A stretch of DNA of 64,000 nucleotides from a virus (IMGVR_UViG_3300030397_000629); one strand, 5' to 3'. Shown: positions 315-63,950, counted from the stretch's first letter. Program-made: numbers and translations. The notes: a model not told the origin generated them from the letters alone.

Positions 315-329
315 GATTAACGGTTAAAT

Positions 330-788
330 TTAAGTTATTTCAATACCTGTTGCACCCTCAATGTAAAAGGGCAGCAGGTGTTTAGGTATATCCTTAAAAG
401 CAACGTCAGGCGTTTCACCGTCCACAACAAAAGTCAGGTCAAACCTCAGGCCGCCAACTGAGTCAACAATCATAAACCTTGAGCCTGTTTTATTTGGCCT
501 TATCCTGCAAGATAGGTGTGACATGCTTGTTACAAAATGCAGTGCATTTGTTGCCAATTTTGTCCAAGCATCATGCCCGCCAATAGCGTTAAAAATTATA
601 TTTGCTTGGTGTTTTTCCGAGATGTTACTCATGATTGCTTTTTTATATTGTCTTTTGACTGTGTGGTTTTTAACATCAGCCTTTGTGATGAATAGAAAGT
701 CACAACTCTTGCTAAGTGTCTTGAATGCACGAGGGTTGGCTTTCAGGTAATTCAAGTAAATAAGTCTTAACCTTTTAATCTTGTCCAT
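330..788 (-). CDS. hypothetical phage early protein
   Basis: 152-aa ORF, co-oriented in early cluster, AAATCCTTTTCA leader like neighbours. Confidence 0.75.
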   Translation of the reverse strand: MDKIKRLRLIYLNYLKANPRAFKTLSKSCDFLFITKADVKNHTVKRQYKKAIMSNISEKHQANIIFNAIGGHDAWTKLATNALHFVTSMSHLSCRIRPNKTGSRFMIVDSVGGLRFDLTFVVDGETPDVAFKDIPKHLLPFYIEGATGIEIT

Positions 789-827
789 TGAAAAGGATTT
801 GTGCCCGGCTGAGTGCCGGGCCTATTA

Positions 828-1187
828 TTAAGCGGCTTTGAGCCTTTTCTCAATTATATTCGTTTTTACAGCACTCCTGACTGCATACTTGTCAACTGCA
901 ATGTATTGCAAATCAACATGCACAAAAAGTGTCGGTTTGGCAGCGCCGCCTTTCGGTTGTATATACTTTGTCCAATTGGCGGTAACAACGCGAGTTGTGA
1001 CGGTCGGCTCTTGCCCTTTCTTGCCTTTCTTGATGTACTTAATAACAAAAGCGTCAGCGTTTTCTTTGATCGTTGCATGAGCAAGCTTTAATGCCTTAGA
1101 CCATGACAACCCCATTGCATAATGCAGGTTGTTTGCGAGTGTTCTGACTAAGCTGCAATATCTTTTGTAATTAATTTTTTGAGTCAT
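828..1187 (-). CDS. small phage protein, possibly DUF2693/WYL-like SH3 fold
   Basis: N-terminal helical LSWSKALKLAH segment followed by FVIKYIKK...TRVVT, resembling Bacteroidota phage DUF2693 proteins; directly downstream of repeated promoter. Confidence 0.4.
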   Translation of the reverse strand: MTQKINYKRYCSLVRTLANNLHYAMGLSWSKALKLAHATIKENADAFVIKYIKKGKKGQEPTVTTRVVTANWTKYIQPKGGAAKPTLFVHVDLQYIAVDKYAVRSAVKTNIIEKRLKAA

Positions 1188-1201
1188 CGCTCTGTGTGTT
1201 T

Positions 1202-1275
1202 TTAATCGTTAACTAATACAATACAAATATACTAACAAAAATGTTACCATGCAACAGGTAAAGTGTTAAAGTTTT
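1202..1275 (-). promoter_or_regulatory. repeated early promoter unit (Bacteroidota sigma70 -7/-33) with operator
   Basis: minus strand TATATTTG (1224-1231), TTG 20 nt upstream (1252-1254), CTAACA-AAAA-TGTTAC in the spacer (1232-1247). Confidence 0.8.
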
Positions 1276-1331
1276 GAAACAAAAAAGGCAGCCTAAAAAA
1301 GACCGCCCTTTATTAATTACCAGACTAGCGA

Positions 1332-1751
1332 CTAATAAATCGTAATGTCATTTGCAGCGCCCTCTTTGCCGTTTGGCCCATAGATGTACCGCTCTTTCTC
1401 TTCGCCCTCAGGACAACCAGCGTCTTGCCACTGTTGCCAACCTTGAGAAAACCAATAATTGTGCCCGTATCCCTTATAGCAATTGTTCGCGTGCAATATG
1501 CTTGTGCACATAACTCTGACGCCTGCCTTATAGCTCTGAGAGTGAGAAAGACTTTTCAGCGCCTCATTTGCTACTGAAACATAAAGGTCTCTGTCAACCG
1601 TCTTTCTGCCGGTGCGTGCAACAATAGCTGCAATTCTGCTGAAATAATCATTCACGCCTTTGAAAAAGTCGTCATTTACAAAACTGCCAGTGCGTTGCAC
1701 CTGCTCGTCTCTCTTTGAAATTACTGACTGAAAGCTAATTCTCTTTGCCAT
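1332..1751 (-). CDS. hypothetical early protein
   Basis: 139-aa ORF downstream of repeated promoter. Confidence 0.75.
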   Translation of the reverse strand: MAKRISFQSVISKRDEQVQRTGSFVNDDFFKGVNDYFSRIAAIVARTGRKTVDRDLYVSVANEALKSLSHSQSYKAGVRVMCTSILHANNCYKGYGHNYWFSQGWQQWQDAGCPEGEEKERYIYGPNGKEGAANDITIY

Positions 1752-1762
1752 TGAAAAGGATT

Positions 1763-1850
1763 TTAACCGTTAACTAATAATTACAATACAAATATACTAA
1801 CAAAAATGTTACTGCGCAAGTACTAAAGTGTTAAGGAAATGTTAAAGCTT
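1763..1850 (-). promoter_or_regulatory. repeated early promoter unit with operator
   Basis: near copy of 1202-1275 and 3924-4010; operator 1797-1812; TGTTAAGGAAATGTTAA upstream element. Confidence 0.8.
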
Positions 1851-1924
1851 TTAATCAAAAGCGGGCAATGCCCTACTTTCAGAGCAATGCCCGCCTCACA
1901 CATTCTGCTTGTTTACATACTTCT

Positions 1925-2275
1925 TTAAAAGGCAATCTGCCAGCTATACCCGGCTTTACTTACTGCGTCATTTACAACGGCTTGGTAAAATGCAAAAGCT
2001 TTCGCCTCATAAATGCCTTTGTATTTGTCGTTGTCTCCTGCAATCTTTAGTATTTCGGCTTTCAGTGCCTCTGTTGCTGTTATCTCTGTAAACCGCTGCC
2101 TTGTGCTCATGATGCGCTTGCAAATCCTCTTGAGGCTGCTTAAAAAGCGCCGCCTGCCCTCAATTGTCGGCATTGGTATCTGTTCAATAGTAGGGTAAGA
2201 AAATTGCACCTGCTCATCTTTTAATGCAGAGGGTTGCAAATCAATCCTTGATAGTACGCCTTTAAGTGTCAGCAT
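1925..2275 (-). CDS. hypothetical protein
   Basis: ORF 1925-2332; likely start MLTLKG at 2275, coupled to the upstream stop. Confidence 0.65.
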   Translation of the reverse strand: MLTLKGVLSRIDLQPSALKDEQVQFSYPTIEQIPMPTIEGRRRFLSSLKRICKRIMSTRQRFTEITATEALKAEILKIAGDNDKYKGIYEAKAFAFYQAVVNDAVSKAGYSWQIAF

Positions 2276-2888
2276 GTTCTTTGTTTTTATTGGCTCGCAA
2301 ATCTGCTCTTTGCAGGTTGTTGAGGGCATCACAGCATGTTACGCCAACAAATGACTCAGGCCCAAGCTTTATATCAGCAGCAAAGATACCTGCCGCCTCA
2401 ACGAGGTCAAGCTCATAGTCTTTTGTTATTCCCTCAATGATGTTGCCAAGGTTGGTAATTTTAAAGTCTGTTCTATAAATCCAAAGTGTAAAGCCGGTTG
2501 AGTATTCTGCTTTGTTGCTGTTGATGTTGATTGCAACGGAATTGTAGTCATAAATCCTTACACCAACAGAAATGTCAGTCAATTCAAAGCTGATGTGATT
2601 GAGTAAAAAGCCAAGCATCTCACCCCTAACAGAGTCCTCAATATTGACGTGATTGTTGCTAATTACTTGCACATCTTGATAGTATGCAAATGTTTGAGGC
2701 ATTTTTTTTGCGCCTGAAAACTCACCGCTGATAAAGTCACAGGTTACCACAATTGGCGGCTTTCTCTGTGTTATTTTTTGCTCAGGCTCGAACTCTCTGT
2801 ATTCAATGCCTTTAATAACTGCATCGCCTTTTAACAGCCTCATTATTTGATTGACCTCAAGCTCATGAGCTTTTATCTTGCTTTTCAT
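2262..2888 (-). CDS. hypothetical protein
   Basis: 208-aa ORF, TTAACCGTTAA immediately before ATG. Confidence 0.8.
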   Translation of the reverse strand: MKSKIKAHELEVNQIMRLLKGDAVIKGIEYREFEPEQKITQRKPPIVVTCDFISGEFSGAKKMPQTFAYYQDVQVISNNHVNIEDSVRGEMLGFLLNHISFELTDISVGVRIYDYNSVAININSNKAEYSTGFTLWIYRTDFKITNLGNIIEGITKDYELDLVEAAGIFAADIKLGPESFVGVTCCDALNNLQRADLRANKNKEHADT

Positions 2889-2941
2889 TTAACGGTTAAT
2901 TTTGCCGGGCTGATTAAGGCCCGGCTGATGATCAAAATAAT

Positions 2942-3199
2942 TTACTTTTTATCTCTGTCTCTGTTCATGAAATATTGCGCATTGTCGCTTGTGTGTTGCT
3001 TATTGACAGTCCTGCCGTCAACCTTTTCAATTCTTGATGTAGTGCCTTTAAAGTAGTGCGTTTGCCCGTTGGTCATTGACTTTAAAGACTCATCTGAGGG
3101 CAGTGTCAAGTGTGATGCTGTTCTCAAGATGTGTGTTTTTAAGTCTTTCCAATTGTTAAACCGCTGAGCCAGTTTTTGACCGTCATTAAATAAATACAT
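2942..3199 (-). CDS. hypothetical protein
   Basis: 85-aa ORF flanked by GCCGGG hairpins. Confidence 0.7.
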   Translation of the reverse strand: MYLFNDGQKLAQRFNNWKDLKTHILRTASHLTLPSDESLKSMTNGQTHYFKGTTSRIEKVDGRTVNKQHTSDNAQYFMNRDRDKK

Positions 3200-3260
3200 G
3201 CTTTAAAAGGTTTTATTGATAAAATAAAAGCGTGCCGGGCATGACACCCGGCTTTATTTT

Positions 3261-3545
3261 TTATGCAATTACCTTGTCAAAGGTATCTGCTTTAATTACG
3301 CTGATTTCGTTGCACACAACCTGCCTGATGCCACTGAGTTGCAAATTTACGCCTGTGCAATGTATATCAGACTCAAGAGCAACAGCCTCTTTGCCGTCAT
3401 GTCTGAAATGAATTTCAGTAACACCATTGTAACGGGTTGCATTGTCATCACAATCAAGTACAAGCACCTGAAAGCCTTGTCTGCTTTTAAACTCATGCTC
3501 TGTGTTGCTGTCAAGTACTGCTGAGAAGAAAGTGAAATTTGCCAT
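3261..3545 (-). CDS. hypothetical protein
   Basis: likely start MANFTFF at 3545, with AACCGTTAA-type motif upstream. Confidence 0.65.
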   Translation of the reverse strand: MANFTFFSAVLDSNTEHEFKSRQGFQVLVLDCDDNATRYNGVTEIHFRHDGKEAVALESDIHCTGVNLQLSGIRQVVCNEISVIKADTFDKVIA

Positions 3546-3609
3546 GAAAAAGATTTTAAAACCGTTAACAAATAAAGGCGTGCCCGGCACTCTGCCGGGC
3601 TGCTATTTC

Positions 3610-3912
3610 TTACTTTAGTTTTTGCCGCTCTGTCATCATTTCAATGTACTCATCTTTTGACAACTCACCGCACATTGAATCAATTTGCCAAAGCAAATAG
3701 GCGTCATCAACAAGACCCGCTGCAAACATTCTTTCTTGCATTCTGCTAAGCTTGCAAGAAAGGTCATTGTCGTCACCGCAAAAGCTTGAGCAATCAACTG
3801 CAACCGCCCAATTGCGCCGCATGTTAAACTCTTGAACCTCTTTCTGAGTCTGCTTAACTCTTGCCGGGTACTGCTCTTTTTGTAGTTGTATTGCTTCTTG
3901 AAATGTCATCAC
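3610..3912 (-). CDS. hypothetical protein
   Basis: 100-aa ORF downstream of repeated promoter. Confidence 0.7.
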   Translation of the reverse strand: MMTFQEAIQLQKEQYPARVKQTQKEVQEFNMRRNWAVAVDCSSFCGDDNDLSCKLSRMQERMFAAGLVDDAYLLWQIDSMCGELSKDEYIEMMTERQKLK

Positions 3913-3923
3913 TTTATTTGCTT

Positions 3924-4010
3924 TTAATCGTTAACTAATAATTACAATACAAATATAGTTACAAATTTGTTACTGCGCAAGTACTAAAGTGTTAAGGAAA
4001 TGTTAAGGTT
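3924..4010 (-). promoter_or_regulatory. repeated early promoter unit with operator
   Basis: CAAATATA on + strand (TATATTTG on -), GTTACA-AATT-TGTTAC 3958-3973, almost identical to 1763-1850. Confidence 0.8.
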
Positions 4011-4011
4011 T

Positions 4012-4458
4012 TCACTTGCTCGCTTGCTGCTCTTTCCAAGCTTTCAAGCACTCTCTTATCTGTTGCAGTCTCATTGAATAAAATTGACCTTGCCCAATAA
4101 TGTCAACCCTGTACTCATCATCTGTAAACTCGCAAACGATGTCTTTGCATGCAATGATGCTTGGGTATTTTAAAGGCTCATCAACGTGCTCAAGAATCAC
4201 ATGACCGTCAAATTTATCTCTGTTGAGTGTGTCGCCGGTCTCGTTGTCATAGCACACAAAATAAACACCCTCACTTGACACCTCTTGCAATCTTCTCTCA
4301 AGGTACTTTTCTCTTGCTTTTAATGCGTCGCCAAAAGTCATAACAGGCTGCTCTTTCTCTGCCTGCCTGCCAAGCCCAATGACCTCTTTTTGCTGCTCAA
4401 GACTTGCACCAAGTCCAAACACTTTTGTTTTTTTGATTAACTCATGCATCTTACTCAC
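4012..4458 (-). CDS. hypothetical protein
   Basis: 148-aa ORF in early cluster. Confidence 0.7.
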   Translation of the reverse strand: MSKMHELIKKTKVFGLGASLEQQKEVIGLGRQAEKEQPVMTFGDALKAREKYLERRLQEVSSEGVYFVCYDNETGDTLNRDKFDGHVILEHVDEPLKYPSIIACKDIVCEFTDDEYRVDIIGQGQFYSMRLQQIRECLKAWKEQQASK

Positions 4459-4504
4459 TGTATTGAAAGTTTGTGCCCGGCATCTCTGCCGGGCGGGTTA
4501 AAAT

Positions 4505-4786
4505 TTAATTTCCGTAATACTCTAAAAACGCCTTTTTCACGTTCTCAATGGTCAGGAATTTGACCGCCGTGCCCGTCAGGTACTTTTTAAAAGCGCCTGC
4601 TTGAAAGGCAGCAAGAAACATGTAATAAAGGTACTCAGGCAAAAGCACGTCAGTATCAATGACAGTGATTTCAAAGCAGTTAGCAATTGCCTCTTTTAAA
4701 GGCTTGCCTGCGTTCTCACCGTGAGACTGCACAAAGAAATGAGCCTTTGTTGCTTTCCCTGAGTAAGTTTTGATTGTAAACGGCAT
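4505..4786 (-). CDS. DUF6943-like small protein (resembles a fragment of a type I R-M specificity domain)
   Basis: NAGKPLKEAIANCF and PEYLYYMF...YLTGTAVKFLTI motifs match my recollection of Bacteroidota DUF6943. Confidence 0.6.
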   Translation of the reverse strand: MPFTIKTYSGKATKAHFFVQSHGENAGKPLKEAIANCFEITVIDTDVLLPEYLYYMFLAAFQAGAFKKYLTGTAVKFLTIENVKKAFLEYYGN

Positions 4787-4800
4787 GAATAAAAGGTTTG

Positions 4801-4915
4801 AATCGTTAACTAATTAATACATTACAAAGATAGTAACAAAACCGTTATCATGCAATAGTGTAAATGTTAAGGAAATGTTAAAGCTTTGATGCAACAAAAA
4901 AGTTATCTTTGCGCA
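4801..4915. promoter_or_regulatory. divergent promoter pair: early unit (-) and sulfotransferase promoter (+)
   Basis: minus TATCTTTG (CAAAGATA on +) with operator 4833-4848; plus TATCTTTG at 4904-4911 overlapped by GCAACA-AAAA-AGTTAT. Confidence 0.7.
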
Positions 4916-5533
4916 ATGCAAAATAAGTCAATACTAATTAGCGGGACATTCAGAGGCGGCACAACTGCTGTTACAAACATTATAAAGGCTCTTGGTGTGC
5001 CTCTTGCCGGTCAGGTCACTCAGAAAACGCTTGAGGACATTAAAGTAAGGCGGCTAATGCACAGCAATCTCAACGTTGATTCATACGCCTTGATTCGCCT
5101 TGCAAAAAAATACACAACTGAGCACGGCACCTTTGCAATTAAATACCCTCATCTATTTAAACACATGAGCACCTGCTTGCAGGCTTTCTTGCGCCCTTAC
5201 TTTGTAATTGTTACCCGTGACCCGTTGGCAGTTGCTTACTCTGAGGCAAGGCACAAAGACGGCAGCCCTGACTTTATTGATAATTTTATGCGGGCATCAT
5301 ACGATGCGCAGCACGCCTTGAGATGTACTTTAAATCACCCTGATGCTAAAATAAAGCTCATCAGCTTTGAGTACTTAATTTCCCCGTCAAGAAACAAGCA
5401 GGAAATAAAAAAGCTCGCTGAGTGGCTTGAATTAAAGCCAAGCGCCGCAACAATCAGTGAGATTGCGGCGGCGCTTGTGGTGCCCGAAATAGAAGAGGGT
5501 AAAAAGGTAAAAACAAACTACCCTATTTTTTAA
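4916..5533 (+). CDS. sulfotransferase family protein (PAPS-dependent, P-loop)
   Basis: 5'-PSB loop ILISGTFRGGTTAV, 3'-PB motif IVTRDPLAVAYS, C-terminal ISFEYL...EIKKLAEWL; start taken at MQNKS after the -7 box. Confidence 0.8.
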   Translation: MQNKSILISGTFRGGTTAVTNIIKALGVPLAGQVTQKTLEDIKVRRLMHSNLNVDSYALIRLAKKYTTEHGTFAIKYPHLFKHMSTCLQAFLRPYFVIVTRDPLAVAYSEARHKDGSPDFIDNFMRASYDAQHALRCTLNHPDAKIKLISFEYLISPSRNKQEIKKLAEWLELKPSAATISEIAAALVVPEIEEGKKVKTNYPIF

Positions 5534-5741
5534 CGTCTGTAAACACATTTTGCTTTAATTCCCTCACCGCTTCTGTTACTGTGTTTTCATGTACTTGTGA
5601 GGTCTCACCGTCCCAAAGAAAGCCGTCTTTTAAGTATATCCAAATCCCGTTGCCAAGGCTGCGCTCATCAGATACGCTTTCAATTTTTTTCTTGTGAATT
5701 TTTGGCAGTCTGTCAATTGTTCTTATGCCTGTGTTTTCCAT
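5523..5741 (-). CDS. hypothetical protein
   Basis: 72-aa ORF convergent with the sulfotransferase. Confidence 0.65.
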   Translation of the reverse strand: MENTGIRTIDRLPKIHKKKIESVSDERSLGNGIWIYLKDGFLWDGETSQVHENTVTEAVRELKQNVFTDVKK

Positions 5742-5745
5742 GCTG

Positions 5746-6420
5746 TTAAAGGTTTAAAAATCCAAGAATAGTATTGAGGTCTTTGTGTGCGGTCTCAAAG
5801 AACAACCTGCCTCTAAAGAGGGTTTTTTCTTTTGCGCTGAGTGTATTCTCACCGTTTTCTTTCTTTGAAATAAACTCACGCTTTTTCACAGATATTCCAA
5901 AATGATTAATGTATTCGTTTCCAGTATATGCCGTTGGCAGTTCTATGTTAATTATTGAGTAATGAGATGCAAGTGACATTGTTTTTACCGTGCCGTCAGA
6001 CATTTGATCGAACACGTTAAAACCGTGATGCTGAGCAACAATTTTCATCAGTTGAGTCAAGTCTTTCCAAGCACCCTGATTTTCGTACTCATAAGGCCAA
6101 CAGTCGTCATTTACGTACTCTTCATTGTGCGTAAAAGGAATTTTAAGCTCAAGGTCAAATATTGGCAATTCAACGGGCAGCATTGAAAACGGCAGCCTGA
6201 AAGGCACCCCATACAGTACGGTGTTCTTGTTGATAAAATTGTTGCATTCCGAGAACGTGTCAAAATAAACAATGCCGTTAGTTGCGTTGCCGTTAAAGTC
6301 ATTAACAGCGCTTGAAATTTCATCTTTATTTTCTGTCTTGTAAAGTATTGAGTTTTGATTTATTACAAAGACGTCTTTGTTATTTGAGTTCATAACAGTT
6401 AATTTTGTTGTGTTAAGCAA
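5746..6420 (-). CDS. hypothetical protein
   Basis: 224-aa ORF (ATG start probably 6393). Confidence 0.65.
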   Translation of the reverse strand: MLNTTKLTVMNSNNKDVFVINQNSILYKTENKDEISSAVNDFNGNATNGIVYFDTFSECNNFINKNTVLYGVPFRLPFSMLPVELPIFDLELKIPFTHNEEYVNDDCWPYEYENQGAWKDLTQLMKIVAQHHGFNVFDQMSDGTVKTMSLASHYSIINIELPTAYTGNEYINHFGISVKKREFISKKENGENTLSAKEKTLFRGRLFFETAHKDLNTILGFLNL

Positions 6421-6521
6421 TATTTAAAAGAGGTAGTAATGCAGAAAGGCTTGCAGTTTATGCGGGCCTTTCGTATTTTTAAGACCTCAATTAGTGTTTA
6501 ATTTCATAGTATTGTTACGAG

Positions 6522-6562
6522 GCGGCTGCTGTGTAAGAGTCACAGCAGCCGCTTTTACTTTT
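6522..6562. terminator. intrinsic terminator-like hairpin
   Basis: perfect 12-bp stem GCGGCTGCTGTG/CACAGCAGCCGC followed by T-rich tail. Confidence 0.75.
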
Positions 6563-7521
6563 TAGCTCATTGAGGCAGCAAGCTCAGCAAAGACTTTGTT
6601 TTCATCACGGTGCAGATGACCGGCAAACTTTTCTTTATCTCTGTTCTTTGCATTGTCGCCTGCATACATGTGAGTTGTATAATAGGTAACACCATTCCAA
6701 AGACCCCAAAGAGTTGAGCCTTTTTGTCCAATTTCATGGTCAAGGCATTCCTTTACAAGGTCAACTTTGATTCTTGTGCGGGCATTCATACTTTTAACCT
6801 CTTCTGATGCGTTTGGCAACAACTGCTCAGCTTTCACTTTGGTCAGCATTTCAACAACTCTGTTATATGCCTTTGTGCTCAATTTAACCTCACTCATTTT
6901 ACCGTAAATCTCAAGAGCTTTCTTTGTGGTCTTTTTAACCTCTTCTGAAAGCTTGAGCAGTTCTTTCAATTTCTTGCTCATTCCCTCACTATGTCTGATT
7001 GAGTTTTGTTTGCCAAGCATGCGGTTGTTTGCCCTGAAAGTATTTGAGCAGGAAATTACAAGGTCAGAGTAGCCAAAACGCAGTGCAAATTTCAGGTCAT
7101 GTGATGTTGTCACTGTTGCATACTGCTTGACGGTATCATTGTTTTGACCAATGCCGTCAATACTGCCTGTATTGATTTGAACGTAAGGCCAAGCACCCTC
7201 ACAAAGTGCACCTGCGCTTGCTATGTCAAAATCAAGATGACGAGCAACCAACAACGCAAGCATGACTGCACTGTGATTTTGAAAAGGCACATAGTCCTCA
7301 CCAACCGGGCCAAACCAAGAGCCGTCATCTGTGCGGCGTGTGGCAAAGATGCCTGTGTTTTCACCTTGGAATTGCAGAGGGTGTTTCTCAACTCCAAAAT
7401 CAAGACCGTACTTTTTACAAATGCTATCTGCTTTTTTAGTCAGGTCATTAGTGTTAACATGAGGCATAACCTCATTTGCTGATTCAATAATAATTTCAGA
7501 GAATTGATCTTTTAAATTCAT
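6562..7521 (-). CDS. DUF932 / TIGR03299 phage-plasmid family protein
   Basis: GLDFGVEKHPL, GPVGEDYVPFQN, TTSHD, ISCSNTF, IRHSEG and TLWGLWNGVTYYTTH motifs. Confidence 0.85.
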   Translation of the reverse strand: MNLKDQFSEIIIESANEVMPHVNTNDLTKKADSICKKYGLDFGVEKHPLQFQGENTGIFATRRTDDGSWFGPVGEDYVPFQNHSAVMLALLVARHLDFDIASAGALCEGAWPYVQINTGSIDGIGQNNDTVKQYATVTTSHDLKFALRFGYSDLVISCSNTFRANNRMLGKQNSIRHSEGMSKKLKELLKLSEEVKKTTKKALEIYGKMSEVKLSTKAYNRVVEMLTKVKAEQLLPNASEEVKSMNARTRIKVDLVKECLDHEIGQKGSTLWGLWNGVTYYTTHMYAGDNAKNRDKEKFAGHLHRDENKVFAELAASMS

Positions 7522-7555
7522 GACTTAATATTTGAAAGGTTTAACAAAAATGTTA

Positions 7556-7795
7556 CTATCTACGGTACTTTAAAAGGTCAGAAAGAAGCATTCTTTTCTG
7601 CCCAAAGTCATAACCTGTTTTAGTGTTGAATTTTGTGTAAACAAAATCGGCATGAGCGCCAACGGTATCAATAAAATCAAACAAGCTGCTTATGCTTTGA
7701 AACATGCCTATCATTTTAGGCTGCCTGTTTTCTCTAAGCTGCTCAAGAGTGTAACCGACTTTGGAAACTGACTTGTTATTTGATGTGTCTTTCAC
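7556..7795 (-). CDS. hypothetical protein
   Basis: 79-aa ORF, first gene of the leftward early unit. Confidence 0.65.
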   Translation of the reverse strand: MKDTSNNKSVSKVGYTLEQLRENRQPKMIGMFQSISSLFDFIDTVGAHADFVYTKFNTKTGYDFGQKRMLLSDLLKYRR

Positions 7796-7809
7796 TGCTT
7801 ATTGTGTTT

Positions 7810-7862
7810 TTAACCGTTAACTACAATACAAATGTAATGACCTTTTTGTTACCATGCAAGTT
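7810..7862 (-). promoter_or_regulatory. early promoter unit (degenerate operator)
   Basis: CAAATGTA on + strand (TACATTTG on -), half operator TGTTAC 7847-7852, TGCAA -33. Confidence 0.7.
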
Positions 7863-8051
7863 TTTAACCGTTAATTATGTGTAATTATTGCAAATAGTTT
7901 TATGAGCAAAGTGCAAAGTGATGCTTTTCAATTAGTAATAATTACGAATGATGCACACAATTATCAAATAACACTGCCGTCACTTTACATTATCCCTTTT
8001 AACTAGTTAACTTTACCGTTAAGAACTTACCAAAAAAATCAAGCTCATCAG

Positions 8052-11000: not shown

Positions 11001-11078
11001 GCAATCAGAGAAGAGATTGAGATTGAAAACAGAAGAGCAGAAAATCAAAAGATTTTGCAAGAAAGTTTATCTAAATAA
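8052..11078 (+). CDS. tail tape measure protein
   Basis: 1008 aa, Ala/Glu/Leu-rich helical, N-terminal coiled coil, C-terminal YEGG...GGDNVLVRLKVGEVVMN and GFNTGG motifs; precedes tail-tip genes. Confidence 0.9.
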   Translation: MATEKVAIQLRISSPDARGTAKELAAVELQIEQITKQLKEAKKQADGDTYARLRDEQIKLQSEGVKLRKEIRDQQRAFREQEFPSDSIIGLRRQYRLLKREIDGIGESDPKFDRLADEAARVADRINELNKQSGSFKDNIGRYEESIGSALDATSGFFSGGGISALAGGLAGSVLGGGFLKAAELAIDMGVAVAETVDEVRTLNRTVRQLADVTEGAEGAITARALAIGRTFDKDVNEVLKQADKLTKDFGISFERSFNLIQTGLLAGADLNGNFLDQLREYPALFAEIGGNADQFVSILTQAEIEGVFADKAIDAVKEFGLSVREMTDATAEAFTSIGISQDQVAQDIEDGGIIKVLERTQMQLNQFRDDSPEVGKALADIFRGAGEDAGIKFLRTVDLSAEGLENLIDLSDKTVQRQLAQIEANEMLAESQTRFNAALGETTFFVGFFEKLKAIGFEVLTGIIQRFKVIRNIVLTLFGAEDLPVTIWEVIAEDAATAAKAQSELEKERKEQENEEQKRASAEQARIKAREEAKKREREGEIGSINELEARLQKLNETLSKTADIDTRVKLSLEIEDVEAQIREQQAVLRNALDNLDGGAAVGLESIGNQETELFGKIAAEQFVKGAVAGIEEDDSFIEAVGNQFIQALGLESAAREEALRKEEELLKELREKGDEEFKKAQEIRKERRQQDLEEQQEFEEKRLAIVSTGFEQAGKLLGQFLVEGQKGFDKFFQGFVLTLLGVIEKTVLLYTAQIVAREIAEKSFAGIATSALLTGLVKGFFSAIKAQVRNLYEGGQVMPVNQEQLQLVQAQLMGAGKVRGSAKNKVQPTSRGGDNVLVRLKVGEVVMNERQQARLEQVAGGGIWKYLGIPGFNTGGRVTDPKSGHVADPKSGHASTQSNTNVSNVTTYKRGVSISKVTSMLPGFNTGGIIGGVPSTVSGNIPQIINPSTFETQAAALDTEVTLSNEQIMMFASVVASETATAIREEIEIENRRAENQKILQESLSK
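10693..10737 (+). repeat. 21-bp direct repeat with 24-bp period in TMP (DPKSGH x2)
   Basis: CTGACCCCAAAAGCGGGCATG at 10693 and 10717. Confidence 0.9.
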
Positions 11079-11092
11079 TTAACCGTTAAGCA

Positions 11093-15216: not shown

Positions 15217-15260
15217 TTCGTAAGTCGTCTTATTTTTCTATAACTGAGATTATTTAAAAA

Positions 15261-15300
15261 GGGCGCTCATTCATTACGATTGAGCGCCCTTGTTTACTTT
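15261..15300 (+). terminator. terminator ending the tail operon
   Basis: GGGCGCTCA/TGAGCGCCC stem with T-rich tail and A-run upstream. Confidence 0.7.
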
Positions 15301-15397
15301 GTTTTTAACGGTTAACTAATTGATAAGTGGCATCCAATTAACCAAAGTAATACTGAGGTTATTATTAATACCCGCATCAGTTCAAATAAATGAGGTT

Positions 15398-47730: not shown

Positions 47731-47731
47731 G

Positions 47732-49525: not shown

Positions 49526-49530
49526 CGGTT

Positions 49531-51905: not shown

Positions 51906-51960
51906 CCTGAGGCGGTGGCACTGCCCTTTGGTGCTGCCGCCAATAAATAACCGTTAAACA

Positions 51961-53232: not shown

Positions 53233-53410
53233 AGATGTAACTGTTTAGATGCCGGTTTGCTGGCACTGTGCTGGCAGACCGGAATTTTAAACACCAAGCT
53301 TTTAAGTTTTAGACATGAATTTTTCAGAGGCAGGTGTCCAATGTTGTAGCACTGGCACCTGCATTTTTTAACATTTAATTTTACTCATTCATAATTTAAC
53401 GGTTAAGAAA

Positions 53411-53962: not shown

Positions 53963-54109
53963 ATGAATAAAACAGCAAATTACATTCTATCACTTTTATT
54001 TTACATCGTTGTTGCCTTGCTCGCGGTTCACTTTGCTCAAGAGCGTAAGAAACAAAACGCTGAGCCGGTGAAAATTGAGTCAGGCAAAATTGATTTACTT
54101 AACCGTTAA
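53963..54109 (+). CDS. small membrane protein (48 aa)
   Basis: read manually: MNKTANYILSLLFYIVVALLAVHFAQ...; motif abuts ATG. Confidence 0.55.
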   Translation: MNKTANYILSLLFYIVVALLAVHFAQERKKQNAEPVKIESGKIDLLNR

Positions 54110-55097: not shown

Positions 55098-55238
55098 ATG
55101 CAATTAGCATTCACTTTATTACAGGTTGCACTTGTTCTGCTTGGTGCGGTTGTTGCGCTCAAGTTTTTCAACGGGTTTCTCAACAAATACGGCACCAAGA
55201 AAAACAAGAATTGTTGCGGGCCTTGCCCTCCTATTTAA
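55098..55238 (+). CDS. small membrane protein with Cys-rich tail (46 aa)
   Basis: read manually: TM helix then KKNKNCCGPCPPI. Confidence 0.55.
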   Translation: MQLAFTLLQVALVLLGAVVALKFFNGFLNKYGTKKNKNCCGPCPPI

Positions 55239-55334
55239 CCGTTAAAAATGCCGCCCGCTCATTACAAGCATGCTGGCCTCATGCGGTCTTGAGAACAACG
55301 GGCGGCAATAAAAACAAGCACTAAACAAACACTC

Positions 55335-56770: not shown

Positions 56771-58150
56771 ATGGTTGAGCCATCAGCAAAGCAAAAGCTT
56801 GCTCTTAATTACCTGACAGACCAAAAAACAAATTTTGTCGGTTATGGTGGCGCTGCATTTGGCGGCAAGTCATTCCTGCTTTGCTGTTGGATAGTTACAA
56901 TGTGCTTAGCTTTTCCCGGTACAGGTTGGGGCATTGGCAGGCGGCAATTGACAACCTTATACAAGACAACTGTTATCACCTTGCACAAGGTGTTTGCAAT
57001 GATGGGATTGAAAGCCGGTGAACACTACAAGCATGACGGCAGATTGCACACCTATACTTTCACTAATGGCTCACAGATATTTTTGATTGATATGGCATAT
57101 AAGCCAAGCGATAAAGAATACACAAGATTTGGCGGTTATGAGCTTACAGGTGCGGCAGTTGATGAGAGTGTTGAGGTTGAAAAGATGGCAATTGAAATTC
57201 TGTTCACACGTCTTGGCAGGCGTCTCAACCATGAGTATGGATTGAAAAAGAAATTACTTGAGACATTCAACCCTGCCAAAAATCACGTTTATTCAAGGTA
57301 TTACAGAAGATTCAAAGAGGGCAGGATGCCTGAGCAATACGCATTCATACCTGCACTGCCTGCTGATAATCCAAGCCCTGAGGTTGAGGATTACATTAAA
57401 GACATTATTGCTAATGCAAGCAGGGTGACGATTGAGCGCCTTATTTACGGCAATTTTGACTATGAGGATGACCCTAATATTTTAATGGATTACTCAGCGA
57501 GGCTTGACTTATTCAGCAATAACTTTGTAGTGCCAAAGAGTGAGTTGTTTAACCGTTACATTACGGCAGACATAGCAATGCAGGGCAGTGACAAGTTTGT
57601 TATATTGGTTTGGTATGGTTGGGTAATTGTTGACGTTGTTGTTGTGCCAAAGTCAGGCGGTCTTGATGTTGTGCAAACGATTAAGGCGACAATGAAAAAG
57701 CACAGAGTGCCTGCAAGTCAAGTGTGTTATGATCATGACGGCGTTGGCGCTTTCATAGGCGGCAATCGTGGAATGATACCGGGCGCAGTTGGGTTTGTTG
57801 CAAACTCATCGCCAATAAAAAGAGTGAGCACAGACAAGGAAGAGAAAAACCAATACAAAAACCTCAAGGCTCAATGCGGTTATGAAATAGCCAAAAAGGT
57901 AAATGCCCGTGAGATATGGTGGCAAAAACAAGTTGACAATGAGGCACAGGATGAAATTGCTGAGGACATTGGGCAGATAATGAAAGACGGCAAGCTTGAC
58001 GGTAAGCTTGGACTCAAACCAAAGTCTTTAATTATTAGAGACATCAGCCGCTCAAATGACTTTGGTGACGCATTTCTCATGAGGTATTTATTTGAGTTGA
58101 GGCCAAAAAGATCGGGCAGAAAAGTCAGGACAATAAAAGTTAACCGTTAA
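56771..58150 (+). CDS. terL: terminase large subunit
   Basis: Walker A YGGAAFGGKS, Walker B GAAVDE, TFNP coupling motif, RNase H-like DIA..GSD and D..DA. Confidence 0.95.
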   Translation: MVEPSAKQKLALNYLTDQKTNFVGYGGAAFGGKSFLLCCWIVTMCLAFPGTGWGIGRRQLTTLYKTTVITLHKVFAMMGLKAGEHYKHDGRLHTYTFTNGSQIFLIDMAYKPSDKEYTRFGGYELTGAAVDESVEVEKMAIEILFTRLGRRLNHEYGLKKKLLETFNPAKNHVYSRYYRRFKEGRMPEQYAFIPALPADNPSPEVEDYIKDIIANASRVTIERLIYGNFDYEDDPNILMDYSARLDLFSNNFVVPKSELFNRYITADIAMQGSDKFVILVWYGWVIVDVVVVPKSGGLDVVQTIKATMKKHRVPASQVCYDHDGVGAFIGGNRGMIPGAVGFVANSSPIKRVSTDKEEKNQYKNLKAQCGYEIAKKVNAREIWWQKQVDNEAQDEIAEDIGQIMKDGKLDGKLGLKPKSLIIRDISRSNDFGDAFLMRYLFELRPKRSGRKVRTIKVNR

Positions 58151-58160: not shown

Positions 58161-59195
58161 ATGAATTTACTTGCCGCATTAACAACAGGGCATCAAGCGA
58201 TTGAATTTTATCGCTCTTGGGGCGCATTTAAGACGCTCATGCCGCTTTTTAAGTATTCGACGGGCGAAGAGTTGGAAATAATGTATTTGCCGCACACAAA
58301 GGATGACAACGGGCATATAAAGCAAAATATGCTTTATTGGGCAGATGTTCTTTTCATGGACAGAGCGCACACAACAGAGCAGGTTAAATTTCTGAGGCAC
58401 TGCAAGGAAAACATGCGCCTTAAAATTTGGCTTGACTATGATGACAACATATTGCAGCTTGACAGAGGCAACCCTGCTTATGAGACATACATGACAAACA
58501 CCAACCTTGCAAATGATCTTGTAGAGGCGCTGAGGCTTGCAGACGTGGTGACGGTATCAACGCAAGAATTGCAAAAGGTTTATTCAACATATAACGAAAA
58601 TGTTATTGTTGTGCCAAATGCATTTGACTCAAAAAAGTTTCCATGCTTGCCGCCTGTAAAGCTCAGAGAGAAAGGGCAGCAGCCCTGTGTTGCTTGGCGA
58701 GGCAGTAACGCACACCTCATTGACCTCATCAGTATTCAAGACCCAATAAATAAATTGCTTGGTGAGAAAAACATCAGAGTTGTTTTCTTTGGTTGGTGCC
58801 CGCCTTTCCTGAGAGGCGGCTTTGCTTATGTGACCAAAAAAGAAATGTTTGCATATTTCAATCAGTACAGGACAATGAGACCTGAGTTTTTAATTGTGCC
58901 GCTTGCGCTCACACCTTTCAATTTATCAAAGTCAAACATTGCATACATTGAGGGTGCAACAGCAGGCTCAACAGTTATTGCGCCTGACTACATGCCAGAA
59001 TTTAAAAGGCCCGGCGTGATGCATTACTCAAAACCTGATGAAATACTTGACATAATTTACAAGACAACATACGATGAGAGGCGGGAAAACGTAAAGGCTG
59101 CACAGGCGTACATTCGCAATGAATTAAGTATTGAAAATGTTAACATAAAAAGAGTAACTTTGTTAAGTAATTTATTTCAAATCAAAAACTTTTAA
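58161..59195 (+). CDS. GT-B glycosyltransferase (GT4-like)
   Basis: WLDYDDNI, ADVVTVST..L, VVPNAFD, VAWRGS..H..DL, PL...PFN.SKSNIAYIE. Confidence 0.85.
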   Translation: MNLLAALTTGHQAIEFYRSWGAFKTLMPLFKYSTGEELEIMYLPHTKDDNGHIKQNMLYWADVLFMDRAHTTEQVKFLRHCKENMRLKIWLDYDDNILQLDRGNPAYETYMTNTNLANDLVEALRLADVVTVSTQELQKVYSTYNENVIVVPNAFDSKKFPCLPPVKLREKGQQPCVAWRGSNAHLIDLISIQDPINKLLGEKNIRVVFFGWCPPFLRGGFAYVTKKEMFAYFNQYRTMRPEFLIVPLALTPFNLSKSNIAYIEGATAGSTVIAPDYMPEFKRPGVMHYSKPDEILDIIYKTTYDERRENVKAAQAYIRNELSIENVNIKRVTLLSNLFQIKNF

Positions 59196-59206
59196 CGGTT
59201 AACAAC

Positions 59207-60686: not shown

Positions 60687-60859
60687 GAAGAGCAAACGCT
60701 CAAGCTTTCAAACGTATTGGATATAGATATATTTACGGCAGGCTGATTGAGTCAGGTGATTTTAACGGTTATGAAAAAACACCTGCTGAGAGCGTCAGGT
60801 CAATACCAATACATGACGCACTTTCTGCACTGTCAAATCAAAACGGCACAAGAACATGA
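60575..60859 (+). other. predicted -1 frameshift site and extension ORF (about 340-aa long form)
   Basis: T TTT TTT heptamer; -1 frame open 60584-60859, TGA overlaps ATG of next gene. Confidence 0.6.
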
Positions 60860-61590: not shown

Positions 61591-61611
61591 TTTAACCGTT
61601 AACTTTGCAAC

Positions 61612-62118
61612 ATGAAAAGAATTTTACTTGTTGTTGCAATGTTGCTCACAACTCTTGCTCTCATCGCTCAAAGCAAAGGCAAGTCTTTTGTATTTGCAGA
61701 GAATAACACGCTTTTTAATATCTCAGCAGATTTCAAAGGCACCGCTCTTGGCATTGGTGACATGGCACAGCTTGGAATAATTTGGCCCGGCAAGATAACA
61801 GCCGCAATTGCAATTCAAGGCTTTACATTTGGCTCAGAGAAAGGATTTAAAGCAGGTGTGTCATTGGGGCGGGTAATGATCGAAAGGCAAAGAAAGTTTT
61901 ACCCGGTCTCATTAATCGCATCCTATCATGCGGCTAATGACATGGGTGTTAGTTATGAAAACCTTGAGATTTCTATTTATGCAGCAATGCTTGTGAGCCT
62001 TGGCGGTGATGTATCTGTTGGGCCTTGCCTCATTCTTGGAAATGGATTCAAGCCGGGCGGTCATGAGTTAAACATCAGCATTGGCATAACTGCAAGGTAT
62101 TCTGAAATGACAAACTAA
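61612..62118 (+). CDS. small outer-membrane beta-barrel-like protein
   Basis: signal MKRILLVVAMLLTTLALIA/Q; amphipathic Gly-rich strands; terminal ISIGITARY. Confidence 0.6.
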   Translation: MKRILLVVAMLLTTLALIAQSKGKSFVFAENNTLFNISADFKGTALGIGDMAQLGIIWPGKITAAIAIQGFTFGSEKGFKAGVSLGRVMIERQRKFYPVSLIASYHAANDMGVSYENLEISIYAAMLVSLGGDVSVGPCLILGNGFKPGGHELNISIGITARYSEMTN

Positions 62119-62135
62119 TTAATTAACGGTTAACA

Positions 62136-62705
62136 ATGGAGTTAATAAGCAAAAAAGAGTCTGAGAGGATTATGAAAGACCTGCTGCTTGTGTTGATCGC
62201 AGGTATTAGAAAGAGGATGAAAGCACAAGGTCACTATCATACCGGCAAGCTCTTCAAGTCTCTTGCTTTTACTATTGACACAAGGACTGATACAATAATT
62301 GGCGAGATAACATTTCTTGCATACGGTCAATATGTTGAGACCGGCGTGCCTGCTGCAAGCATTCCTTTCTCAGGCAGAAGAGGCAAAGGCGGCGTGAGTA
62401 AGTACATACAAGCACTGAGGCGGTATTTCCAAGAGAAAGGTTTTCAAGGCGCTGAGGCGCTGAGGATAGCATTTGCAACAGCTAATGTGCACAGGCGCGA
62501 GGGCATGCCAACAAGAGCCTCAAGGCGTTTCTCAAGTGATGAGGGCAAGGCAAGAACCGGCTTTGTGGGCAGAGAGGTTGAGGAAAAAGGCCCGTTAATA
62601 TCTGCAACCGTTGGCCGGGAAATGTCAGAGGCATTGATAAATGAAGTAACGGCAAACTTTGATTTTAAGATTGGCAATCAATTTGTGAGAGACATAACAA
62701 TTTAG
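62136..62705 (+). CDS. neck/tail-completion protein (HK97 gp10-like)
   Basis: TGKLFKSL, YGQYVETG, basic middle segment, AFATA. Confidence 0.6.
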   Translation: MELISKKESERIMKDLLLVLIAGIRKRMKAQGHYHTGKLFKSLAFTIDTRTDTIIGEITFLAYGQYVETGVPAASIPFSGRRGKGGVSKYIQALRRYFQEKGFQGAEALRIAFATANVHRREGMPTRASRRFSSDEGKARTGFVGREVEEKGPLISATVGREMSEALINEVTANFDFKIGNQFVRDITI

Positions 62706-62847
62706 TATATTTGCAATGTTTCTTTTAGTACCTTTTTTGGATTGTGTTATATTACTCAATTTGGGAAAGTCAAAGAAGGGGTTTATTTATTATTTTCATT
62801 GCATGTAAAAGGGATGCCTGTATAACCGGGCACAAGCTGAAAACAGA

Positions 62848-62890
62848 AAGGCTGCAAAGATTGGGGAATCGTTGCAGCCTTTATTTTTTT
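62848..62890. terminator. terminator between late and convergent early block
   Basis: AAGGCTGCAA/TTGCAGCCTT stem plus T-run. Confidence 0.75.
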
Positions 62891-63164
62891 ATACAATGCA
62901 TCTTTTGCCTAATTTCAGCGTGAGGTTGCTGCCCATCTCAGTGAGCACCGCACGTATATCCTCTTTTACATAGTAGGTGACAAACATAGGGTTGTAATTG
63001 CTTTCTTTGCCCTCTTGAGAAAAACCAAGCTCAGAGAGCTTTTCAACAACATCTTCTTTGTAAAATGTAGAAGTGTTAAGGTCATCAATGCCCGTTGGTG
63101 CATTCTCAACGGTTATCTCAAAATCTGAACTTACAAGCTCTTGCTGAATTTCGTAAATAGTCAT
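62889..63164 (-). CDS. hypothetical early protein
   Basis: 91-aa ORF below repeated promoter. Confidence 0.7.
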   Translation of the reverse strand: MTIYEIQQELVSSDFEITVENAPTGIDDLNTSTFYKEDVVEKLSELGFSQEGKESNYNPMFVTYYVKEDIRAVLTEMGSNLTLKLGKRCIV

Positions 63165-63177
63165 AATGTCAAAGTTT

Positions 63178-63262
63178 TTAATCGTTAACTAATTGCTTTC
63201 AATTATACTGCAATATAGTAACAATTATGTTATCATGCAAGTGTAAAAGTGTTAAAGTTTTG
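63178..63262 (-). promoter_or_regulatory. repeated early promoter unit with operator
   Basis: GCAATATA on + strand, GTAACA-ATTA-TGTTAT 63218-63233, TGCAA, AAGTGTTAAAGTTTTGAAA as at 1261-1279. Confidence 0.8.
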
Positions 63263-63608
63263 AAATTATGACTCTTTGATAAATGGCATTGTTTACAGAT
63301 AGGCTTGCTTTGCTGTGATTGTCGCAAAACTCTCTCAGCTTGCTCACAACCATATTTAAGTCATTGCCGAGTAAAGCCGATTGCATAACCTCTGTGTCAT
63401 TGCAATAGATGTAAAGCATAGCTGACTTGTCAAAGAACAGTCTATCAATAAAGTTACCCTTGAATTGTTCCAATACAACAGAAACGATTGAGCCTGCACC
63501 AACAAGGCGGTCAATTTTTATTGATGTCTCTGAGTGGAAAACTTGGAAGCTGTCAACAAGGTCGTTGTCATTGTAGCTGTTTAAAATTTCACATAATGCA
63601 TCAAACAT
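63252..63608 (-). CDS. hypothetical early protein
   Basis: 118-aa ORF, motif upstream. Confidence 0.7.
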   Translation of the reverse strand: MFDALCEILNSYNDNDLVDSFQVFHSETSIKIDRLVGAGSIVSVVLEQFKGNFIDRLFFDKSAMLYIYCNDTEVMQSALLGNDLNMVVSKLREFCDNHSKASLSVNNAIYQRVIISKL

Positions 63609-63672
63609 GATCTTTTATTTTTAACGGTTAATAAAGTATTATAAAGGCCCGGCTAAGTGCCGGGGCTGCAAG

Positions 63673-63894
63673 CTAAACCTCTGCCTCAATGCCAAGCTCA
63701 GCATACTTGTTGTAAACATAATCACTAAGCTCTTGCGTCTCACTCTCTGTTGCATAGCGGTCAGCAAGCCAAGAGTCAATAAAATCCTCTTCAAGGCCAA
63801 TGCTGTCAATCTCATGACCGCCAATTGATTGCCAAGACTCAGCAAATGAAGTGAGGGCAGAGTCAGAGGGCAGTTTGAAAGGTTTGAATAACAT
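63673..63894 (-). CDS. hypothetical acidic early protein
   Basis: 73-aa ORF with shared leader. Confidence 0.65.
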   Translation of the reverse strand: MLFKPFKLPSDSALTSFAESWQSIGGHEIDSIGLEEDFIDSWLADRYATESETQELSDYVYNKYAELGIEAEV

Positions 63895-63950
63895 GCTAAA
63901 AGGTTTTTAATCGTTAAGAGTTTGGCGGGCGCAATGCCCGCCTGATGTAT

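Follow-up and report, generated by a model that had tools for sequence, protein, structure and literature searches.

Why does one short palindrome recur at gene boundaries, and even inside codons, throughout the genome of a phage? We asked this of the 11-bp word TTAACSGTTAA (S, C or G) in a 64,000-nucleotide stretch of viral DNA (IMGVR_UViG_3300030397_000629; hereafter, the window), which comes from an aquatic metagenome, forms the bulk of a 65.6-kb contig, and has an AT content of ∼58%. Our analysis confirms the motif and shows that it is under selection, specific to the phage, symmetric, and close to gene starts; one related phage keeps it at orthologous junctions. Its sequence features suggest that it may well be a dispersed, start-associated binding site of a phage-encoded dimeric DNA-binding regulator, similar to an operator or stoperator, a reading that we hold to be about evenly poised between right and wrong. 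The motif belongs to a known, mechanistically unsolved class of dispersed start-associated phage repeats.

The window contains 32 exact copies, each at the coordinate listed in a preliminary description of this DNA. Expected numbers were 0.01 from dinucleotide shuffles and 0.03 to 0.4 from Markov models of orders 0 to 4, which agrees with the earlier estimate of well below one copy, and TTAACSGTTAA is the commonest 11-mer of the window by a wide margin. A further 26 copies with one mismatch bring the total to 58; by our own estimate, roughly one one-mismatch copy would be expected. The variants reported previously were all present, with TTAATCGTTAA at five sites (1202, 3924, 17292, 63178, and 63907) and TTAACSGTTAT(G) at three (36414, 48298, and 49522).

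Eight of the exact copies lie within coding sequences, compared to 0.63 in 1000 synonymous-codon shuffles (maximum 4). As described before, all in-gene copies read Leu-Thr-Val-Asn/Lys, but this reading frame is trivial, because the remaining two frames of the palindrome contain TAA on either strand. The codons involved, said to be uncommon, are only moderately so (TTA, 18.5% of Leu; ACG plus ACC, 30% of Thr). The peptide LTV[NK] occurs 14 times in window proteins versus 0.85 expected from composition; for 8 of these occurrences, the joint probability of the codons used is 0.027. The eight in-gene copies are independent of each other, as evidenced by flanks that differ among them. The excess over the codon null therefore means that the target of selection, or drive, is the nucleotide word, as had been proposed, and that protein sequence has been shaped by it. 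The nucleotide word itself is under selection.

Where do the copies lie relative to genes? Considering the 36 non-coding copies with at most one mismatch, 27 have their end −2 to 15 nt ahead of a start codon on either strand. Random placement in non-coding DNA gave 7.3 ± 2.4 such copies, with a maximum of 15 in 2000 trials. The earlier statement that most copies stand 0 to 20 nt before a start thus holds for the intergenic copies but not for all 58, of which 31, about half, were found within −2 to 15 nt of a start. Seen from the genes, 35 of 87 starts (∼40%) have a copy with at most two mismatches at −2 to 15 nt, where ∼2 are expected, and the spacing between motif and start is bimodal (−2 to 4 nt and 9 to 15 nt). 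Gene starts are simple longest-open reading frame (ORF) calls, and single spacings may be off; the small ORFs at 53411 and 60771 were accepted because the motif precedes them, and counts were made with and without them where relevant. Early, middle, and late genes are preceded alike, in line with the preliminary description, and the TAA of the motif serves as the stop codon of several upstream genes. Some copies have no start nearby: 7864, 15305 (in a convergent gap), 17570, 40117 (in a terminator-like hairpin, read by eye), 55235, and 56247. Where genes overlap, for example, in the fibre module, the copies lie inside genes, and two of these follow soon after the start (31522, +36 nt; 32905, +63 nt). 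Exact and one-mismatch copies are listed below by their coordinates in the window.

317–327, exact: 2 nt upstream of the ATG of minus-strand ORF 3–314
1202–1212, one mismatch (TTAACGATTAA in gene sense): 14 nt upstream of minus-strand gene 828–1187; early promoter unit
1763–1773, exact: 11 nt upstream of minus-strand gene 1332–1751; early promoter unit
2889–2899, exact: adjoins the ATG of minus-strand gene 2262–2888
3924–3934, one mismatch: 11 nt upstream of minus-strand gene 3610–3912; early promoter unit
7810–7820, exact: 14 nt upstream of minus-strand gene 7556–7795; early promoter unit
7864–7874, exact: divergent region 7796–8051; no gene start within 15 nt
8012–8022, one mismatch: 29 nt upstream of tape-measure gene 8052–11078
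11079–11089, exact: right after the stop of 8052–11078; 3 nt before ATG 11093
15305–15315, exact: convergent gap; overlaps the stop of minus-strand ORF 15312–15530; not start-associated
17292–17302, one mismatch: 11 nt upstream of minus-strand gene 16897–17280; early promoter unit
17570–17580, exact: includes the stop of ORF 17286–17573; 35 nt before prohead protease gene 17616
20906–20916, one mismatch: 15 nt before ATG 20932
21225–21235, one mismatch: 12 nt before ATG 21248
22727–22737, exact: right after the stop of 21248–22726; 3 nt before ATG 22741
24309–24319, exact: 11 nt before TTG 24331
25589–25599, exact, in-gene: 2066-aa fibre gene, codons 102–105 (LTVN)
25820–25830, exact, in-gene: 2066-aa fibre gene, codons 179–182 (LTVN)
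31522–31532, exact, in-gene: gene 31486–32160, codons 13–16, 36 nt past the ATG; the gene overlaps the preceding one, with no gap
32905–32915, exact, in-gene: gene 32842–33189, codons 22–25
33701–33711, exact, in-gene: gene 33170–33937, codons 178–181; centre-A variant at 33764
36414–36424, one mismatch: end runs into ATG 36423 (TTAACCGTTATG)
37884–37894, one mismatch: 3 nt before ATG 37898; far end of a 103-nt gap
38534–38544, exact, in-gene: gene 37898–39622, codons 213–216
39826–39836, exact: 9 nt before GTG 39846; early-type promoter unit, plus strand
40117–40127, exact: 31 nt past the stop of 39846–40085; within a GCCGGTTA/TAACCGGC hairpin followed by a T run (by eye); not start-associated
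43578–43588, one mismatch: includes the stop of 42925–43581; 3 nt before ATG 43592
43739–43749, exact, in-gene: gene 43592–43981, codons 50–53
44048–44058, exact: 11 nt before the ATG of Mini-A-like gene 44070–45218; 26 nt downstream of TACATTTG
45808–45818, exact: includes the stop of 45497–45811; 2 nt before ATG 45821
46061–46071, exact, in-gene: gene 45821–46366, codons 81–84
48298–48308, one mismatch: includes the stop of 47732–48301; runs into ATG 48307
49522–49532, one mismatch: includes the stop of 48875–49525; runs into ATG 49531
51947–51957, one mismatch: 3 nt before ATG 51961; behind a hairpin in a 55-nt gap
53396–53406, exact: 4 nt before ATG 53411 (unlisted 48-aa ORF)
54099–54109, exact: 14 nt before ATG 54124; far end of a 166-nt gap
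55235–55245, exact: 240-nt gap; 89 nt before 55335; no downstream ORF of at least 25 aa
56247–56257, exact: 109-nt gap; 63 nt before small-terminase-like gene 56321
58140–58150, exact: supplies the final codons and the stop of the large terminase gene; 10 nt before ATG 58161
59192–59202, exact: includes the stop of 58161–59195; 4 nt before ATG 59207; junction also occupied in relative L187
59825–59835, exact: 2 nt before ATG 59838; junction occupied in L187 with the centre base flipped
60762–60772, one mismatch: runs into the ATG of a 46-aa ORF
61592–61602, exact: 9 nt before ATG 61612 (window-only gene between two copies)
62123–62133, exact: 2 nt before ATG 62136; junction also occupied in L187
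63178–63188, one mismatch: 13 nt upstream of minus-strand gene 62889–63164; early promoter unit
63621–63631, exact: 12 nt upstream of minus-strand gene 63252–63608; behind a hairpin
63907–63917, one mismatch: 12 nt upstream of minus-strand gene 63673–63894

Eight early promoter units are paralogous to each other (1190–1330, 1755–1860, 3915–4010, 4790–4885, 7796–7900, 17281–17380, 39740–39845, and 63165–63250). Their layout is cTTTAACAcTTT...cTTGCAtgGTAACAttttTGTTagTAtaTTTGtattGTAATTattAG-TTAACGRTTAA-aa..ATG, with three dyads around a −33/−7 promoter: GTAACA-N4/5-TGTTA, GTAAT-N-ATTAG, and the motif itself. The motif lies ∼15 nt downstream of the −7 box, TAnnTTTG, in the transcribed leader of all eight units, and most copies outside them sit at operon-internal junctions. 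We counted 18 such host-type TAnnTTTG boxes in intergenic DNA. The TTG...TAnnTTTG arrangement is one that we take to be the Bacteroidota promoter type, and Shine-Dalgarno-like words were found upstream of only 3 of 87 genes. The host is likely a member of the Bacteroidota, given promoter units of this type and the scarcity of Shine-Dalgarno words, the two features from which we draw it.

Is the motif a signal of the host rather than of the phage? Its density is ∼500 copies per Mb in the window and roughly 0.5 per Mb in 301 Bacteroidota genomes. These genomes (2 to 6 Mb) contained 0 to 23 copies each, usually fewer than a reversed control word. The most motif-rich of them, searched for a prophage or a host relationship, had its copies scattered on the chromosome with no cluster. 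A phylum-wide Bacteroidota signal is ruled out by these counts, but the word could still be a signal specific to the phage's own host. A literature search with the motif string returned only primers and unrelated sites.

We then compared the window to related phages. Searches of INPHARED and IMG/VR with DNA, portal, and capsid queries found no close relatives, and relatives of the protease lay on short contigs without the motif, which we deem uninformative. Homologues of the large terminase (TerL) were plentiful, and seven contigs were taken for comparison. One of them, L187 (65% TerL identity, 43% GC), has nine TAACSGTTA copies in 12.8 kb, where ∼0.1 would be expected by our own estimate, and six of the nine are 3 to 15 nt before starts. 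There are three junctions at which the window has the motif and L187 has a homologue of the downstream gene (w59207, w59838, and w62136); L187 carries the motif at each of them, in two cases with the other centre base, although the proteins at these junctions are only 27 to 46% identical. Five other contigs (L188, L193, L189, L191, and L192) carry the same genes with junctions that lack the motif and show plain A-rich upstream sequence or overlaps instead. These genes are therefore expressed elsewhere without the motif, which makes it a lineage-specific added layer. This lineage specificity argues against a generic ribosome-binding signal and for a phage factor that would co-evolve with its site.

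Some of the relatives have words of their own. L191 (JGI 3300020049, Ga0206652_1000075; 1718–20633; 56% TerL identity) carries an asymmetric 13-nt word, AAACTTCAGTAAC, with 9/9 copies in one orientation and 8/9 located 0 to 2 nt before an ATG. These copies occur at operon junctions and in repeated early units, which hold four of them (gatttgtTTCATCAATGATTCACAAAC...). In L189/L190, TTCTTAGCG adjoins an ATG three times. The early protein encoded at 828–1187 has homologues in both L187 and L191; L191 has its own word directly before the start of the homologue, and L187 has the motif ∼47 nt upstream by our own count, in a repeated unit. Gene content also differs at sites bounded by the motif. Gene 61612–62118 (168 aa) is present in the window only, flanked by the copies at 61592 and 62123; its neighbours are adjacent in L187, L188, L189, and L191, and L187 has one copy there. 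The slot between the large terminase gene and w59207 contains unrelated genes in the window and in L187, and motif copies bound it in both.

Does the core of the motif occur outside this lineage? We scanned viral, metagenome, and genome collections for pairs of the motif separated by a gap of 215 to 245 or 270 to 300 nt. The matches were mostly irrelevant: 7-nt (TTAACCG)n arrays, repeated beta-rich L-T-V-N proteins, and iteron-like AACGG regions. The only ones resembling the window were G001, its relatives L065 and L026, and L116/L051. G001 (IMGVR_UViG_3300027900_000013; L010 plus L011) is a podovirus-like sequence of 26.5 kb and 59% GC, with genes for an SU10-type portal, a T4-type terminase, a family A polymerase, and a DnaB-like helicase, and it had no protein or DNA similarity to the window. 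It carries 13 isolated 17-bp palindromes, (A/G)CG-TTAACSGTTAA-CGT, i.e., (A/G)CGTTAACSGTTAACGT, spanning 7405–25625. Five to seven of them lie 17 to 28 nt before a start, upstream of the Shine-Dalgarno sequence, and others lie inside genes of the replication arm. The short contigs L065 and L026 (41 to 49% protein identity to G001) keep the core within other symmetric flanks (CC...GG), one instance being a syntenic copy close to the end of a 123-aa gene. The palindrome of this lineage is thus 17 bp long, a classical operator size, and separate from the ribosome-binding site. The core common to the window and G001 may be a coincidence, because there are only 1024 possible 5-bp half-sites, and we do not deduce a common factor from it. 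Among the array-bearing sequences were an Acidobacteria metagenome-assembled genome (MAG), CALMZP01 (G007; e.g., C7:8678-8730, 17252-17487), with 548 motif matches, and a Prevotellaceae MAG (G010) with 98. Their (TTAACCG)n arrays number in the hundreds and, on many contigs, often form inverted pairs with ∼170 to 260 bp in between; they resemble a dispersed repeat element and have no relation to the phage motif.

What kind of molecule would recognize such a site? When copies are oriented by the gene downstream, 16 have C at the centre and 15 have G, and A or T never occurs there in exact copies. The flanks are asymmetric, being A-rich on both sides in gene sense, so the recognized palindrome is here limited to 11 bp. 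The motif forms no RNA hairpin (0 kcal/mol), and its best pairing segments in three Bacteroidota 16S rRNAs left 2 or 3 mismatches in 11. A ribosome-binding site that works by rRNA pairing was rejected on this lack of 16S complementarity, together with the motif-free orthologous junctions of the five relatives. The orientation-free C/G centre, the perfect dyad, the selected mid-gene copies, and the copies remote from starts all point to a symmetric dimer on double-stranded DNA, and lineage specificity suggests that the protein is phage encoded. The centre flip seen at orthologous sites when the window is compared to L187 agrees with the prediction for a homodimer bound to double-stranded DNA. 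Of the roles offered in the preliminary description, binding by a transcription or other regulatory factor fits best. We infer that a protein binds the motif, that it binds DNA rather than RNA, and that its effect would be repression. A lineage-specific phage protein would recognize the motif as a symmetric dimer at the 5′ ends of cistrons, namely in the leaders of the eight early units, in the short gaps of middle and late operons, and within codons where genes overlap. Once bound, this protein would regulate the expression of individual genes throughout the genome, as an operator-bound regulator at early promoters and as a roadblock within operons, like the L5 repressor at its stoperators.

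Several observations weigh against such an operator. The strongest is that the motif hugs the start codon even in long gaps, which a pure DNA roadblock does not need and which suits an mRNA signal. In gaps of at least 42 nt, the motif is at the start-proximal end in 7 to 9 of 13 cases, for example, 3 nt from the ATG in a gap of 103 nt, 14 nt in a gap of 166, and 3 nt in a gap of 55. On the plus strand, 24 of 30 junctions with gaps of at least 9 nt contain the motif, compared to 2 of 18 with a shorter gap or an overlap, and this rule of “overlap or motif” could mean independent translation initiation. The distance between half-site centres, only 6 bp, leaves little room for a classical helix-turn-helix (HTH) dimer. 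Neither an integrase nor any other sign of lysogeny was recognized in the window, so genome-wide silencing would have no evident use. We also have no candidate for the binder: among ∼70 window proteins searched against Pfam, PHROGs, and Atlas, no DNA-binding family was found except a weak Xre-type HTH in 36930–37316, and the intergenic region beside that gene lacks the motif.

The HTH gene is part of a divergent pair (36930–37794) that resembles a CI/Cro-type switch. The CI-like minus-strand gene, 36930–37316, encodes 128 aa with the HTH (E 0.023) and a coiled-coil tail, and the 76 nt that separate the two genes contain other palindromes, TTGTAATAATTACAA and GATTATTGCAATAATC, but not TTAACSGTTAA. 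The early protein 828–1187 was not put forward as a binder, its Sm/WYL-like structural hint being of low confidence. Further searches (Pfam and PHROGs on 20 G001 proteins, three Atlas searches, and BLAST among window, G001, and short contigs) found no shared or recognizable DNA-binding protein.

Could the motif instead act on the mRNA, the main rival to the operator? A phage RNA-binding protein or an antisense RNA might use it in the ribosome-loading region as a switch for the translation of ∼40% of cistrons in a non-Shine-Dalgarno host, which we consider rather unlikely. The crowding of intergenic copies at starts, long gaps included, and the plus-strand rule speak for this, as do the scarcity of Shine-Dalgarno-like words, the one-sided placement of the asymmetric L191 word at its ATG, and the ability of the C form and the G form to pair with each other (−11.4 kcal/mol). 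A translation role has also been proposed for the Start-Associated Sequences (SAS) of Cluster K mycobacteriophages (PMC3203893). However, an orientation-free C/G centre is meaningless for the recognition of single-stranded RNA, mid-gene copies are selected, and the copies at 7864, 15305, 40117, 55235, and 56247 are remote from starts. Moreover, the same genes are translated in relatives without such a word, the G001 core sits 17 to 28 nt upstream of the start, beyond the Shine-Dalgarno sequence, and no complementary RNA gene was found, with zero Rfam matches in the window. The same behavior of the relatives and of G001 makes the earlier suggestion of a translation-initiation element for a Shine-Dalgarno-poor host unlikely. 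Distinctly less plausible to us is the idea that the palindrome, the L191 AAACTTCAGTAAC-ATG, and the L189 TTCTTAGCG-ATG are “private” translation-start codes, each read on the mRNA by a factor that the phage lineage itself encodes and that would license or block initiation on Shine-Dalgarno-independent Bacteroidota ribosomes, one cistron at a time for ∼40% of cistrons and independently of transcription.

It is very doubtful that the motif marks the boundaries of gene cassettes, as a nuclease or recombinase site or as micro-homology for the gain, loss, and exchange of genes between ORFs. The window-only gene between two copies, the motif-bounded slot with unrelated genes in L187, and the Mini-A (Topo VI-A/Spo11-like) protein encoded by the phage, whose family has retained DNA-cleavage residues (PMC7671362), are consistent with it, as is the extra gene of phage Corndog, likewise flanked by a 17-bp repeat (PMC4351075). 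But the indel pattern does not discriminate, since every independently regulated gene would bring its own copy; homologous recombination would have little to work with in 11 bases, cutting at the in-gene copies would do harm, the window has no genes in common with the motif-bearing G001, and selection for evolvability is weak. Highly improbable is a phage-specific promoter or initiator that gives each gene a short-leader or leaderless transcript. The motif does lie immediately upstream of many genes of all temporal classes, TAnnTTTG boxes are few, and the L191 word adjoins the ATG as leaderless starts would. Against this, a perfect palindrome would fire both ways, the bimodal −2 to 15 nt spacing to the ATG does not match a constant distance to a start site, the sequence upstream showed no conserved element, neither an RNA polymerase nor a sigma factor was recognized among window proteins, and in the early units the motif is downstream of a complete host-type promoter. 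We give scarcely any credence to a target of DNA modification or restriction protection, or to a word spread by mutational or uptake-like drive. Over-representation on either strand, genes included, would suit these, but the strong start-codon association and the lack of enrichment in Bacteroidota genomes would not. No methyltransferase was found in the window, nothing supports the methylation or protection role that had been considered, and phage modification targets are normally avoided or neutral, not gathered at gene starts. The analogy drawn earlier to DNA uptake sequences and cyanobacterial HIP1 fails too, because these are host-genome-wide words without start association.

Which known systems does the motif resemble? 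The genomes of Cluster O mycobacteriophages (∼70 kb) carry more than 30 invariant copies of a 17-bp palindrome, TGTTCGG-N3-CCGAACA (PMC4351075). Tens of dyad copies per genome lie between ORFs, near ORF 5′ ends, or inside ORFs, the centre is not oriented with respect to transcription, and the extra gene of Corndog lies between two copies; function and binder are unknown (PMC4351075). The window motif has the same traits of copy number above chance, position at ORF ends, lack of orientation, retention in a relative (L187), and no enrichment in the 301 Bacteroidota genomes. It differs in being an 11-bp site with a single C/G centre and a tighter link to starts (−2 to 15 nt), in a host type without Shine-Dalgarno sequences and with Bacteroidota-like promoters, and in occurring also in the leaders of repeated early units. 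The Cluster K SAS, GGGATAGGAGCCC, is likewise a short word a few nucleotides upstream of some starts, sometimes with the upstream stop inside it, and absent from host genomes; its function is still untested (PMC3203893, PMC12699233). In contrast to the window word, it is asymmetric, occurs in one orientation, contains a Shine-Dalgarno core, and precedes non-structural genes only (PMC3203893, PMC12699233). The window word is a perfect palindrome without Shine-Dalgarno core or rRNA complementarity and stands before early, middle, and late genes.

The stoperators of L5 and of further phages in Cluster A are 20 to 30 sites genome-wide for one phage protein, with binding and silencing shown experimentally for L5 (PMC6550527). 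Some of these sites are in promoters and most are between genes, and the site sequence varies among related phages (PMC6550527). The division of the window copies between the eight early promoter units and operon-internal junctions resembles this layout. Yet L5 stoperators are monomer-bound sites of 13 to 14 bp without dyad symmetry, and their orientation follows transcription (PMC6550527), whereas the window site is an orientation-free 11-bp palindrome. The KorB operator OB of plasmid RK2, TTTAGC(C/G)GCTAAA, is another odd-length palindrome with a central C/G; its half-site is one transition away from that of the window motif, and a dozen copies across the replicon serve global repression (PMC2680271, PMC11790492). 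KorB is a plasmid ParB-family CTPase clamp (PMC2680271, PMC11790492), but the scans of window proteins turned up neither a ParB_N nor a KorB domain.

The other recognizable products encoded by the window are a tape-measure protein, a ClpP-type prohead protease, a portal-like protein, long fibre proteins, a large terminase, a PD-(D/E)XK nuclease, and a glycosyltransferase. Searches of Pfam, PHROGs, and Atlas gave no family for almost all other window proteins, and no tRNA genes were found in the window. Plus-strand gene 44070–45218 (382 aa) matched PHROG 6247, “DNA topoisomerase” (E 1e-93), and its Atlas feature and structure matches led to TOP6A/Spo11 Toprim clusters. From these matches, we take its product to be a putative Mini-A (Topo VI-A-like) protein of phages, as defined in PMC7671362. 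At the level of the family, Mini-A proteins retain DNA-cleavage residues and have no known function (PMC7671362). ParB_N occurs in one structural neighbour cluster of 44070–45218; the Atlas match to this cluster spans the Mini-A part only.

Other repeated elements accompany the motif. GC-rich GCCCGGC/GCCGGGC hairpins, read by eye, lie between many small early genes (330–4460, 51905–51961, and 63609–63672) and probably serve to terminate transcription or to stabilize RNA. What follows them directly is frequently the motif or a second leader word, AAACCTTTT(A). The second word is found 3 to 12 nt before an ATG (e.g., 3205, 4791, 37372, 40243, and 63898), in a subset of genes mostly without the palindrome, and its enrichment is weak overall (70 copies versus 54 expected, with one mismatch allowed). 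L187 has a similar word, TAACCTTTA, before three genes. Some of the relatives also carry genes for PTPS (QueD) and GTP cyclohydrolase I (L189, 5684–8804; L190; and L191, 5157–6890), with an additional Vut_1 gene in L189 and L190. These genes suggest 7-deazaguanine DNA modification; no such genes were recognized in the window.

Descriptions of short dispersed repeats where phage genes meet, such as the palindromes of Cluster O and the SAS of Cluster K, go back more than a decade, and to our knowledge only the L5 stoperators have a demonstrated mechanism. The case of TTAACSGTTAA is unusually clean and dense, as evidenced by its presence at ∼40% of genes, its embedding in codons, its conservation at orthologous junctions, and its occurrence in a phage of a non-Shine-Dalgarno host type. 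In such a host, control at the level of DNA and control at the level of translation predict clearly different outcomes. Relatives that carry the same genes with the same word, a different word, or none offer a natural comparison from which phylogenetic profiling could nominate the binder. Should the factor be a global silencer, it would serve as a compact tool for controlling Bacteroidota genes one at a time; should it act on mRNA, a new mode of translation control would come to light.

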